This document shows positions 1,171 through 45,246 of a stretch of 64,000 nt of DNA, in pieces; the first letter of the stretch is position 1, and the number at the start of each line of letters is the position of its first letter. The DNA lies in the NCBI GenBank assembly GCA_964016885.1, contig OZ024741.1:405852001-405916000 (forward strand). Direction: 5' to 3'. Source of the stretch: Eledone cirrhosa. Its lineage: Eukaryota. Both the position numbers and the translations under genes were made by a program. The notes beneath the pieces are model-generated. The model was not told where the DNA came from. It worked only from the letters and a program-made list of their open reading frames with translations, and did no database searches.

Positions 1171-1344
1171 TATATATATATATATATATATATATATATA
1201 TATATATATATATATATATATATAAATATAAATTAGCGAGAATCGTATTTCGGCTTAGGAATTAACGAAAAACAACTTCCGAGATGTATATATATATATA
1301 TACAATATATTAATAAATGAAAACTATATTTATAAAACCATATT

Positions 1345-1410
1345 TATTTTATTATACATATTTCAAGGGCAACCAAGGCAAATTATGGTGCGCTTTCATC
1401 AGATAAAATA
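1345..1410 (-). ncRNA. Type I hammerhead ribozyme
   Basis: Reverse-complement copy of 1640-1705, one substitution in stem II. Confidence 0.75.
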
Positions 1411-1639
1411 CAGATTTGTTTTATAAATAAATATTGACATACCCGGAAAAAAAGAGAACCTTAACGGTTGGAGCTTCCTGGATAGTGGAGATTATATTTT
1501 ATTGAGGGTAATACAAAGTTATGAGTGAGTATGAAAATGAGTGTCCGAAAGTTGAAAAGATAACGGTTTATTTAAATTAAACTGTTGGAAGAAGGTGATA
1601 TGTAAGGGTATGTCAATATTTATTTATAAAACAAATCTG

Positions 1640-1705
1640 TATTTTATCTGATGAAAGTGCACCATAATTTGCCTTGGTTGCCCTTGAAATATGTATAATA
1701 AAATA
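1640..1705 (+). ncRNA. Type I hammerhead ribozyme (minimal stem III)
   Basis: tattttat-CTGATGA-aagtgcacc..ggttgccctt-GAAA-tatgta-TA-ataaaata: 8-bp stem I, interrupted stem II, AUA triplet. Confidence 0.8.
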
Positions 1706-2304
1706 AATATGGTTTTATAAATATAGTTTCCATTTATTAATATATTGTATATTTACTCCACTAATTTGTTGAATGCTTTATATCAGTTATAAACATTTTT
1801 AAGCTTGTTGAATCCCAACAAATTAAATATAACCTCTGCATGTATATATATATATATATATATATATATATATATACGTGTGTGTGTGTATGTAAATAGA
1901 ATTCTCTCAAACGGTACAATTTCAGGGAAATATGATGAACTTAAGTTTTCCATAAACAAATGTCTCTGTTCTCCAATGTATTATTTGTACATAAATAAAT
2001 CTTTATATTTCCTATAGGATCAAGTATAATTTCTCAATTTCCTATACACTTGTTGAATAAAATGATTTATAATATCATTTTATGTAAACTGCATTATTGT
2101 TTTCTTTCGGCGTTTACAGAATAAATTCTATAGTTTTTCATATAATTCCCTCTGCAATTAACAAAACAATTTATTCCCAGTGTGTATGTATATGTGGTTT
2201 TTTGTTTTGTTTGTTTTTTTTCCTGAATAAAATTCATATCATAAATCTTCTAAAACAGCTGGGAAATATCACAAATTTCAAACTTGTATTACAGAAGGTA
2301 TATA

Positions 2305-2645
2305 ATTGTTTCTACTTATAGCACAAGGCCAGCAAATACCCAGTACATTACTGGTACTTTATTTTATCGACTCCGTAAGGATGAAAAGCAAAGTTAACCT
2401 CGGCGGGATTTGAACTCAGATCATAAAGGGCCGTAACTCTATGCTGCAAAGCATGGTGTCCGACCCTGTACCGATACTGCCAATCCAGTATATAATTGTT
2501 TCTACTTTTTGGCACAAGACCAACCATTACCCAGTACATTACTGGTACTTTATTTTATCGACCCCATAAGGATGAAGGGCAAAGTTAACCTCGGTGGGAT
2601 TTGAACTCAGACCATAAAGGGCTGTAACTCTATGCGTCAAAGCAA
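2305..2645 (-). mobile_element. Two tandem tRNA-derived SINEs (family A)
   Basis: Reverse complement of the consensus ggcggtggattggcag..gagttcaaatcccgccgaggttaactttgcctttcatcc..gtcgataaaataaagtaccag (A/B boxes plus conserved body). Confidence 0.85.
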
Positions 2646-2717
2646 CTGACTTCAACATACTTCACTAGCATTGCTTGTGAATATCTTCATTTTATTAAAT
2701 TCAATTTGGCTCCTTGT

Positions 2718-41482: not shown

Positions 41483-41974
41483 GCTAAACTACCTAGCCGT
41501 ATGAACACGTGCAACCCTGTAGTTAGTACTAACTGTAATTGTAGGAATCGGGTTGATTGCCCCCTATCCGGGAAATGCCTCTCTAGTAACATTGTCTACA
41601 AATGTAAGGTTGTAACACCCACGTCCCGTAGGGCCTACATAGGGTTAACCGCCAATTGATTCAAGCAGCGTCTTTACATGCATACCCATTCTTTTCGTTA
41701 CCCTCTAAGAAGGAATATGACGTCACTTTCAGCTTATATCTGGAGTCTAAAAGACAACCACACCCAATATAAGTTACACTGGGAGATCCTAGCTAGGGCT
41801 AGATCGTATAACGGAAATAAAAGACCATGTGACGTCTGCGCCGCTGAGGCCCTGGAAATACTCTACGCCACAGACCACATCTTAAACAAAAAATCTGAGG
41901 CAATTTCGGCTTGTAAACATAAATTGCACAAAACTTTCCTCTATTACAGCCCCACGTTATACCCTAACGGATAG
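41483..41974 (+). pseudogene. Inverted duplicate of the PLE GIY-YIG region with an in-frame stop
   Basis: Same peptide as the 40529 ORF; aattga at ~41655 replaces aatagt. Confidence 0.88.
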
Positions 41975-42910
41975 TACGATTTATACGTGGATATTTTACG
42001 TCCTAGTGTGGGAGCTAAGTATATGTTTTGTTTATACCATTACTTATTTGCATAGGTAAGTATATTTTACCCGTACGTTTTGTGAAGGTACGTATACCTT
42101 CTCGTACGTATATTTGATTGTTTATGTTATGGCGTATAATTTTATATATTCTGGTACATATGGTTTGGCTATGTGTATACAGGAGTTTTGCGTCTGTGTG
42201 AGTATGCAGGTTCGTACGTATGTAGGGTGTATGTATATGTGTACTTCATGTTTTGGTTGACTTACGTCTCCGAACATTCGTGTATTTACATGTAGGTATG
42301 TGTGTGCGCTTGTTATATACGTATTTATTTATTTATATACGTTTATATAATTATTCATTTATTTGTATACACGCATACACACACAGACATATTTATATGT
42401 GCGTGGTTTTGTATACCTATGGTAAGGTTTTGCGTATGCTTGTGTATGTACGTATTTGTTTGCGTGTATGTATTTATTTATTTCTATTACTTCTGTATTG
42501 TATTTATTTACTTTGTACTTAACTCTGTAGCGGAGATTCATTCGGTCTCCTAGTTAGAATTTTAGTCTACGACTTCTGCTATACCATTTACGTGGTTTTG
42601 TCTTTGCGTGCTATTGTTCTCCATGCTCCACATTGACGTATTATCTTCGTTTTTTTTCGTTCATTGCCAGAGAACGTCTCTATGAACCACCTAAGAGAAC
42701 ATTAGTCTACGACCTCTTTTATACCATAAACGTGGTTCTGTATTTGCGCGTAATTGTTTTTCACCGCTCCTATTAATGACGTATTATATTCGTTTTTTCC
42801 CGTTCTTTGCCAGGGAACGTTTCCACGAACCAAAGTATCGTCTTCCTGTCTTCCTCCGGTTGCAACGTTTTTTGAAATATCCAGTTCTGCGTTTACAGAT
42901 TGACTTTGTT

Positions 42911-42961
42911 AGTTTCAGAAGATCCCGTTAAGGGTGAAAGCAGCGATTCTTTGCTTAAACT
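42911..42961 (+). ncRNA. Variant HHR-like motif (CAGAAGA core)
   Basis: agttt-CAGAAGA-t ccc gttaa ggg t-GAAA-gcag cgattct ttgc-TT-aaact. Confidence 0.5.
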
Positions 42962-43630
42962 TTAATCTGTTATTTTAATAAATATTTGCTCTACGGTTCT
43001 TATATATTTGATATATATCTATCCTTATCGATTTTAGTCTTCAAATTCATTATTATTACTATATATATATATATATATATATATGCTAGCGATCCTATCC
43101 TGTCACCCATCTTGTGAAGAATAGATCTCTTTATCTAACTTTTCTAGACTACAATTCGTAACAGTATTTGACATTTTATTACAAATCTTTTCAGACGGTA
43201 TTACACCCTGTTTCAATGATTAGCGGTCAGGTGATATGAGTAATGAGTCTATATGAGTCCATGTTCAGATAATGACAGACCCAGAAGATGACCGCACATG
43301 TTTCAATATGAATAGCTTATGACATGTTGCATGATGGCGGATTAGATTGTTAAAAATATATAAAATATTATCTTTATTTAATAATTACATTTACATTTCC
43401 CGTTAAAAATGTAATATTTTAAAGTATCCATTGTGTAAATAAATAAAGTTACCGTTGTCTTTGGTTTCTGCTGTTAACTTTTGTATTTGTTTGGTTCTTT
43501 TTTGGCGAATTAAGAGAGTCGTGTACAAGAAATGGCAGATTACAAAGTATTTTAGGTCTGTTAATTTAGCAGTCCTCTGAGACATCAAAATAATCTGCTA
43601 TTGTGTTGTTAAGCCTTAAGAAAATATTAA

Positions 43631-43805
43631 GTAGAAACATGTGCTTATGCCGTATTTGGTAACACATTGGTCCGGCAAACCAAAGATGTGGGTTCGTGTC
43701 CCATGTACGTCAATACTCATCCTTTTTTTCATTCAGAGTTTTTTTAAATCCCAACTAACAGACTAATTCTATTTAGTCAAATACGGCATAAGCACGTGTT
43801 ACCAC
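43631..43805. mobile_element. tRNA-like-headed repeat with a short inverted copy of its 3' end
   Basis: ttggt ccggcaa accaa (anticodon-arm-like), gtggg ttcgtgt cccat (T-arm-like), gtacgtca; IR gtgcttatgccgtatttg / caaatacggcataagcac. Confidence 0.55.
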
Positions 43806-45008
43806 CTAATTTTCAAATTCGCTAGCCGTTTGTAAACAAAGCCTGATTTGTTTCTCTCTATATATTAAGAAAATATATTCCACATGCCACCACGATAAAT
43901 GAAACTTATGGGTTAGTCCGCTTCGTGATCCCAGGGGACGATGGCGAAAGAGATCCCTCGTGATCCCTTCAGAAGATGGCGAAAGAGATGTACTGGGACT
44001 GCCACTCCGCTTCACAGGGCACGTCCTTGCGGTTAGCCAACTTCGTTCCGATAGCAGTAAGAAGGGATGTGCCCTGGGGGCCAAGAACACCGGAAGTTTC
44101 CACTGCCACAGGCCCGACCACAAATCTAACAGAGAACGGACTGTACCTTGACAGTTTTCTCTCTTCGGCCTGGTGAGCAGCGAAGCCAAAGCTGGTAGCT
44201 GAACGCAATGAATTAGTAGAATTTTGTTATAGTCGTTAAGTGGTAAATTGTCACAATTGTTAGTCATTAGAATGTCGAATTAAATGCAATGTAGCATTTT
44301 TTATTTATTTCTCTACACTATGAGTTCATTTTCCAGCGACATCAACTCAGCTTTTCGTCCTTTCGAAGTCGACAAATAAAATAATTATTGAGGTACGATG
44401 GATTGGTGGAATTGATGAATACTTGGATAACATGTCATGCGGTGTCTCTCCTGGTTCCGTATGTTTTGAATTCAAATCTCACTTCCTATCACCAGAAAAA
44501 CGGCGAGACTTCTGCATCAGTGATGGAAAGACGAAACAATTTCCTTCGTCAGATTTAAGTTAAGAATTGGTCTTTCCTTTCCTGACAGCTGAACAATTAC
44601 AATAACAGTAGCTACAACAACAAAAATAACATCATTTGCAATAATGTATTCGACTGAAAAGAAAAACTGGTACAATCAATTGCAATTGTCTACTCAGAAT
44701 AGTTTTATGTTTTTTTCCTTTGGTTTTAAGTGCGAAAGTTAACAGTTTTTTGTAAGACAACCGCCGTGATTTCCTCTTCTGTAGCATTGCCAATAGAACT
44801 ACTGAGATGTCAACGAGTTTGTCATGTTCATTTGTTGCTTATTTACTTCTTTTAACTGTCAAATATTGTTTACTAGGAATAACAGCAAACAAAACAACAT
44901 TTCTTTTTAAATAATTATATATATATATATATATATATATATATATATATATATATATATATATATATATGTATGTAAGAATATTTTCGAAACAGCGAGT
45001 GGATTTGA

Positions 45009-45246
45009 AATTATTAGAAATGTTAGCTATCGCCGTATTTTGACTAAAGAAATTAAAGAAATTATTTAGCCTGATAGTGGGGTTAAGAACCCTCGGAGAA
45101 ATGGAAAAAGATGAGTATTGACGTACATGTACGTCAATACTCATCTTTTTCCATTTCTCCGAGGGTGCTTAACCCCACTATCAGGCTAAATAATTTCTTT
45201 AATTTCTTTAGTCAAAATACGGCGATAACTAACATTTCTAATAATT
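45009..45246. repeat. 238-bp spacerless palindrome between (TA)n tracts
   Basis: Centre tgacgtaca|tgtacgtca at 45127/45128; ~2 mismatches. Confidence 0.93.

Follow-up and report, generated by a model that had tools for sequence, protein, structure and literature searches.

A 64,000-nt stretch of the 3.0-Gb Eledone cirrhosa assembly (GCA_964016885.1, contig OZ024741.1, positions 405,852,001 to 405,916,000 of the forward strand; hereafter the window) contains ten inverted duplications from different sequence families, most with an end at or near a (TA)n tract, and raises the question of how such two-armed insertions are made. An earlier reading, based on the letters alone (the sequence-only reading), had related them to Penelope-like elements (PLEs), and PMC8557442 counts the origin of inverted and tandem PLE insertions among the problems still to be solved. 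Comparison with related copies across the genome points to a probable answer: these are head-to-head insertions of PLEs, or of passengers of PLEs, into (TA)n, in which both cut ends of the target prime reverse transcription at two fixed sites, probably within one dimeric complex and on RNA from one source.

All ten inverted duplications were recovered where the sequence-only reading had placed them by self-BLAST after microsatellite masking, with arms 91-98% identical where the two align separately. The match is just 44 nt in that at 36281-36480, because an open reading frame (ORF) resembling those of long interspersed nuclear elements (LINEs) cuts its right arm. The coordinates as first drawn omit a one-sided tail of 34-160 nt, so the real outer ends lie further out. 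The description of the spacer as the longer 5' reach of one arm holds in every case (the left arm at 1298, 33424 and 39463, the right at 36281).

Such structures are found genome-wide and are no local oddity. A random sample of 40 evenly spaced 10-kb stretches (400 kb in total), used in place of a query with the 3' end of the window's ORF-bearing PLE (family A) that gave no matches, probably owing to too-common words, held 56 inverted repeats, 51 of them away from stretch edges. In 24 of these 51, (TA)4+ lay no more than 12 nt from one end and no more than 175 nt from the other, against 1.7% of 17,714 random intervals, which bears out the proposed (TA)n adjacency; the density of repeats with this signature is roughly 60 per Mb, as estimated from the 400 kb. 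The centres are unique sequence, with TA at the centre in 0/51. Both arms had also been said to read away from the centre, and the loci compared below contain 201 same-family head-to-head junctions and no tail-to-tail junction without an intervening TA tract, a count in which overlapping loci may enter one insertion twice. More local inverted repeats, absent from the first list, lie at 28885-29040, 55972-56323, 17866-17949 and 26380-26454 of the window, and the first of these has the TA-plus-tail signature.

Each element was searched against the genome and the 25-30 top-scoring loci compared per family; for family A the set was 60 loci of 10 kb, the first 60 non-self matches of 125 scored from 86,010 candidates. 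Numbers prefixed with L denote these genomic loci. Every family, A to J, has not one but two fixed 3' ends, proximal (P) and distal (D), 34-160 nt apart, a feature missing from the sequence-only reading. Of 141 same-family insertions whose ends can be classified, drawn from the ten families, 137 pair a P arm with a D arm (p 1e-35 against an expectation of 50%). This total comprises 119/120 in eight families, after removal of eight duplicate loci and exclusion of 116 one-armed arrays and of 25 in which an end could not be classified; 5/6 in family E and 7/8 in family I, both scored by eye; 6/6 in the random stretches; and the window's own family A copy, which is D/D. Either type may be the longer arm (P in 42, D in 35), and the outer ends of the 119 insertions adjoin (TA)4+ on both sides in 93, on one in 25 and on neither in one. 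Target-site duplications are unreadable, as (TA)n flanks both sides. Within the window, eight of the ten elements have one P and one D arm; the others are the D/D copy at 39463-43060 and that at 36281-36480, whose right end cannot be read.

In tandem copies D continues straight into the start of the next unit, and P and D are therefore internal to the transcribed unit. Priming from coinciding RNA 3' ends, as first envisaged, does not fit arms that stop at two different sites, both internal to a tandem, circularly permuted unit. Folding of the P-D regions gave no structure in common. One-sided tails might instead arise if both ends began alike and the endonuclease cut back one arm's tail during resolution of the intermediate, after the reading of the tail in PMC8557442; this would also accommodate occasional D/D copies, the form taken by three of the four exceptions. 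Such trimming is nonetheless very unlikely: the boundary with (TA)n is as clean at P ends as at D ends, both have AT-like final bases, some P ends carry slippage-like (TC)n runs, and PMC11167929 maps both sites as starts of reverse transcription. Certain P or D ends have their final bases drawn out into runs of (TC)n, (ATT)n or (CA)n (window 34030-34086; L132, L149, L073 and L223); these resemble slippage at the priming site, and the birth of a microsatellite there is possible.

The second line of evidence comes from 12 inverted arms (nine in the main set, plus L321, L341 and L373) that consist of the tail only, sequence without a counterpart in the partner arm. They are therefore not fold-back copies; their synthesis must have begun on RNA at the opposite flank of the target. 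Fold-back, whether a cDNA or antisense template folding and being copied back on itself (PMC3846280) or a replication template switch at (TA)n cruciforms, would explain the many near-perfect palindromes, the recurring junctions of families B, H and J, and a tail-to-tail palindrome around a TA tract at 11486-11765. Tail-only and short D arms, however, contain sequence that the long P arm lacks, some insertions have an arm of another family, and the centres are unique sequence rather than TA. The process is thus contradicted for the tail-only class and highly improbable as an account of the rest, and together the P/D rule and the tail-only arms favour two-ended priming over it. The 11486-11765 palindrome itself is 97% identical between its halves, is centred on (TA)n, the opposite geometry, and has related sequence at 1033-1170; it could have arisen through a further insertion of the one-armed kind, or through fold-back during replication from one TA tract to another.

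The recurring junctions of some families also resemble elements with terminal inverted repeats, such as miniature inverted-repeat transposable elements (MITEs) or other fold-back DNA transposons. The arms, however, measure anything between about 25 and 2,770 nt; their 3' ends are fixed, their 5' ends ragged and their outer ends unequal, and ORFs for reverse transcriptase (RT) and GIY-YIG endonuclease lie upstream. A DNA transposon is hence refuted as a general account, terminal repeats being neither fixed nor equal. Assembly artefacts fare no better, as arms of insertions differ by 0-13% and a head-to-head joint of family J was recovered from the raw reads of two further samples (seven reads in one, three in the other); we regard either origin as scarcely credible.

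Given two priming events, do the arms come from one source? Across 23 family A pairs, arms of the same insertion are discordant at 29 of 524 polymorphic sites, where 131 would be expected from other copies, and the partner is the nearest neighbour in seven of the eight pairs with more than 500 nt in common. Long arms thus cluster together, which does not support an origin of the arms from different source subfamilies. A tandem copy's choice as template for the inverted arm was also considered and set aside: there are too few differences, and the apparent signal at L036 is an alignment artefact beside a deletion.

The alternative closest to the sequence-only reading is two-ended priming by separate complexes, or on two RNAs of the same expressed locus, with the P/D rule arising from asymmetry of the cut or complex rather than from one RNA. 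It draws support from head-to-head pairs and chimeras of different families (L044, L055, L295, L324 and window 19064), and from pairs with two long arms (L033, L088), which need two near-full templates or displacement. The different-family pairs are few beside 201 same-family junctions, however, and they break the P/D rule, with P and D mixed in just two of five (Fisher p 0.0007), which fits a rule set inside one complex; moreover, long arms have rare variants in common in a family with many sources. Separate complexes or RNAs are accordingly unlikely. Template switching between families is represented by L101:1300-1900, where a family B inverted junction lies between two family A segments.

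Several observations weigh against priming by one complex on RNA of one source. Had both cDNAs run off the same broken RNA, symmetric truncation should be enriched; eight of nine families show no such excess, J being the exception, and this suits separate RNAs. Over all families the partner arm is nearest in only 19 of 75 pairs and lies below the median in 50 of those pairs; short arms are poorly informative, and a common source could be imitated by conversion from one arm to the other. The different-family control consists of five cases. Four insertions have the same end twice, the window's own PLE among them, and 25 head-to-head arrays, plus a few in the E, I and random sets, have an unclassifiable end and go uncounted. 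No empty allele was seen in contigs or in restriction-site-associated DNA (RAD) reads, which do not span the window's own junctions. Finally, reading one RNA twice would presuppose strand displacement.

Setting these points against the pairing of ends, one-source priming from both sides would proceed as follows. By analogy with in vitro work on a lizard PLE, the GIY-YIG endonuclease would cut both strands in the (TA)n target. One 3'-OH would pair with the AT-ending P site and the other with D, 34-160 nt downstream. The cDNAs would halt at separate points, in some cases following a template switch, giving the variable 5' ends and chimeras seen, and the two cDNA ends would join, mostly with an overlap of 0-5 nt (72 of 125 junctions, a rough figure from BLAST edges), followed by fill-in by host repair. 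Failure of one side would leave a one-armed copy; among 24 one-armed family A copies, a micro-arm was present only in L073. Non-coding hammerhead and tRNA-derived RNAs, whose insertions have the same structure, would be handled alike by the PLE enzyme. The suggestion of two cDNAs primed from both sides of a (TA)n break and joined at truncated 5' ends is supported, as are the PLE origin, the outward polarity and the (TA)n target.

The architecture itself is not new. Inverted 5'-truncated copies, one-sided tails and (TA)n bias are published PLE hallmarks (PMC8557442, PMC3846280, PMC2377424), and endonuclease-bearing PLE units are known to share the 5' truncation, the head-to-head inverted copy lying next to the 5' end, partial tandems, an often one-sided tail and (TA)n (the same three papers). 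They differ in tail length, 30-40 nt in those papers against 34-160 nt here; and where their extracts either settle on no mechanism or prefer self-priming or resolution by a nuclease, the present data add a counted P/D rule, tail-only arms and a test of common source. The purified protein of the lizard PLE, Poseidon PAc, cuts and extends both strands, starts RT at two internal sites flanking the tail, and is a predicted dimer (PMC11167929). In the present data the ends, the target, the polarity and the common source are observed, whereas cutting, priming, the dimer and a single RNA are inferred; each of the latter is supported for the lizard PLE in vitro, although in the extracts of that paper no difference in start site is seen between strands, and neither the inverted layout nor the pairing of P with D is derived or stated. 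In L1 twin priming, too, the reciprocal DNA end primes a second cDNA and the join has a short overlap, but there the site of second priming adjoins the point where the first cDNA stopped, and the 3' end remains single (PMC11702581); here the second primer would land at a fixed site beside the first start, leaving the 3' end duplicated, the distinction drawn in the sequence-only reading. An explicit two-ended PLE model was not found in the literature searched, which did not extend to certain key older papers or to supplements, and may therefore be in print.

Which elements use this route? On the ORFs found upstream, six of the ten families can be identified as 3' ends of protein-coding PLE families: A, C, H and I follow Hydra-type PLE ORFs, those of C, H and I being related to A, while E and F follow GIY-YIG ORFs of another PLE type. 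Families B and D are probably also 3' ends of coding PLEs, each with one informative locus, a Hydra-like PLE ORF remnant 1 kb upstream for B (L378) and an endonuclease ORF 1.2 kb upstream for D (L376). Most of the short elements are therefore truncated ends of coding PLEs rather than passengers. Only two families are non-coding, G and J, so that the many non-coding hammerhead passengers first supposed reduce to one hammerhead unit and one tRNA-derived unit.

In the window, left arms lie on the minus and right arms on the plus strand. Family A is, judged by its predicted 709-aa protein, a young PLE of the Hydra clade. A 713-codon open frame in L060 carries the RT motif YRDD followed by VYKC..IGLT (RT and C-terminal GIY-YIG in a single ORF), and the protein has 488 relatives at E<=1e-20, with about 40% identity over 97% of its length. 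Read against the Hydra-clade motif list in section 11 of PMC8557442, it has RWR (RWK-like), SDKTG (DKT), CNCRNRADC (the CxCX5C linker), CDLC (CxxC) and CKH (CxH); its 3.25-kb unit exceeds the usual <3 kb given there. The window copy is 5'-truncated: the left arm (39463..41483) encodes aa 393-709 at 41482-40532, and the right (41483..43060) aa 544-709 plus the 3' untranslated region (UTR), both ending at D, the same-end exception noted above. A Pfam search of this truncated piece gave no match.

Family C stems from a second Hydra-like PLE, of which it contains the 3' UTR and the end of the ORF, with P at (TA)n 12350-12405 on the left (12401..13758) and D on the right (13753..15040; tail ~14956-15040, hammerhead core at 14853). 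Family H, from the 3' UTR of a Hydra-like PLE, has its D arm at 35622..35882, with a tail of ~160 nt, and its P arm at 35881..36048, against (TA)n at 36048. Family I, of like origin, has a D arm at (TA)n (36159..36321) and a right arm (36323..36483) that includes the spacer and is cut by the LINE-like ORF before P. Family B probably also comes from the 3' UTR of a Hydra-like PLE. Its left arm (1298..1608) is the longer, includes the spacer, has its P end against (TA)n 1287-1302 and carries a canonical type I hammerhead near 1345-1410; the right (1606..1842) ends at D, with a tail at ~1756-1842, (TA)n at 1843 and a hammerhead core at 1648. Family D, probably the 3' UTR of a Hydra-like PLE, has a left arm in two pieces (16272..16487; D end, tail ~16274-16352) and a right arm with its P end at (TA)n (16490..16658). 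LTR (long terminal repeat)-retrotransposon-like ORFs, with protease, RT, RNase H and integrase motifs, lie upstream of a family D copy at ~3100-6100 of L377.

Family E represents the 3' UTR of a non-Hydra GIY-YIG PLE, with a P arm at 17982..18153 and a D arm at 18152..18682 whose tail, 18649-18682, lies past an internal (TA)n; a broken PLE RT ORF 67% like this family is at 8629-9771. Family F, from the 3' end of a PLE whose protein carries GIY-YIG at its C terminus, has a D arm with tail at 18985..19176, opposite a chimeric arm (19181..19412) that joins family F body (19181-19361) to a family-A-like P end (19364-19412), followed by (TA)n.

Hammerhead motifs had been placed at 18380, 19227 and 33720, and a 5' half at 35882. 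That at 33720 stands as a canonical motif (33722-33798), whereas the other three fail the descriptor and are degenerate or partial (TTGATAA core, CTGAGGC and CCGATGA, respectively). By descriptor, the window's only canonical type I hammerheads are those of the 1298, 12405 and 33424 elements and one at 17317; an Rfam scan of the window returned microsatellite noise and one sub-threshold hammerhead match at 17299-17372. In family A the core reads CAGAAGA in 78 of 81 matched arms; the family fails the canonical descriptor, in this too departing from the Hydra clade as described in PMC8557442; its 3' UTR contains a putative conserved hammerhead-like fold at ~42915-42965, with CAGAAGA in place of CTGANGA. 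Arm starts, as listed and without a formal test, did not visibly concentrate at predicted hammerhead cut sites.

Family G is a 685-nt unit whose end runs into its start, a circularly permuted tandem, with a longest sense ATG frame of 28 aa and a canonical core in all ten matched motifs. Its left arm (33312..33868; tail ~33312-33417) contains the 33722-33798 hammerhead and ends at D; the right (33867..34030) ends at P, then (TC)n and (TA)n. Retrozymes have been described as PLE derivatives (PMC7229834, PMC11722881, bioRxiv 10.64898/2026.07.22.740005), and as a non-coding tandem with a type I hammerhead G would be of the non-LTR retrozyme type (PMC7229834), although those are 170-400 nt long and G bears the full PLE insertion signature (PMC7229834, bioRxiv 10.64898/2026.07.22.740005). 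A second retrozyme-like unit, at 17107-17409, is a partial tandem of ~255-nt period that contains the hammerhead at 17317 and ends in (TA)n; similar sequence abuts a family A copy in L087.

Family J, unlike those retrozymes, has a tRNA head and no hammerhead match to the descriptor. It is a 271-nt tandem unit in which ARAGORN calls tRNA-Ser(GGA) in five of six loci submitted. The window copy has a D arm with a 34-nt tail (44978..45127) and a P arm at (TA)n (45128..45246), joined at a CATG palindrome just 3' of the T-loop. Arms of this family stop at reference positions 245-257, which places them at the T-loop A58 position or immediately 3' of it (window 45128; L281-L305), and could mark a halt of RT at a structured or modified tRNA-like base. 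The J tail has nothing in common with those of the nine other families; J is joined to pieces of families A, F and I in L055, L178 and L295. PLE-mobilised tRNA-derived short interspersed nuclear elements (SINEs) were not found in the literature searched, to which certain older papers and supplements did not belong, and J may thus be in print.

The remaining repeats of the window are of other kinds. LINE-type fragments with RT, zf-RVT and APE domains lie at 36452-37251, 45827-47680, 30577-32023 and 60462-63928. An abundant dispersed family of ~190 nt, often in tandem and in both orientations, is present at 2298-2644, 19527-19907, 23288-24531, 26190-26816, 35429-35622, 37362-37661 and 56050-56258, with a tRNA-like match nearby at 23221-23278. 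Minisatellite arrays with periods of 73/148, 40 and 78 nt occupy 1-936, 4296-7391 and 50371-55835.

What is new here is genomic evidence, in the form of a counted P/D rule and tail-only arms, for an unsettled mechanism whose architecture was known; with the same-source arms it sharpens the test of mechanism and argues against fold-back. More tentatively, a dimeric PLE complex on two fixed sites of one, possibly circular, RNA may seal a (TA)n double-strand break from both sides, so that a single rule would make tail, inverted arm and tandem, would serve a retrozyme and a tRNA-derived SINE as well as two or more PLE clades, and would have left on the order of 100,000 palindromes in the genome. 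A large share of the short inverted repeats in this genome are retroelement scars, which annotation could mistake for MITEs. The family J result suggests that a tRNA-derived element rides on PLE machinery.

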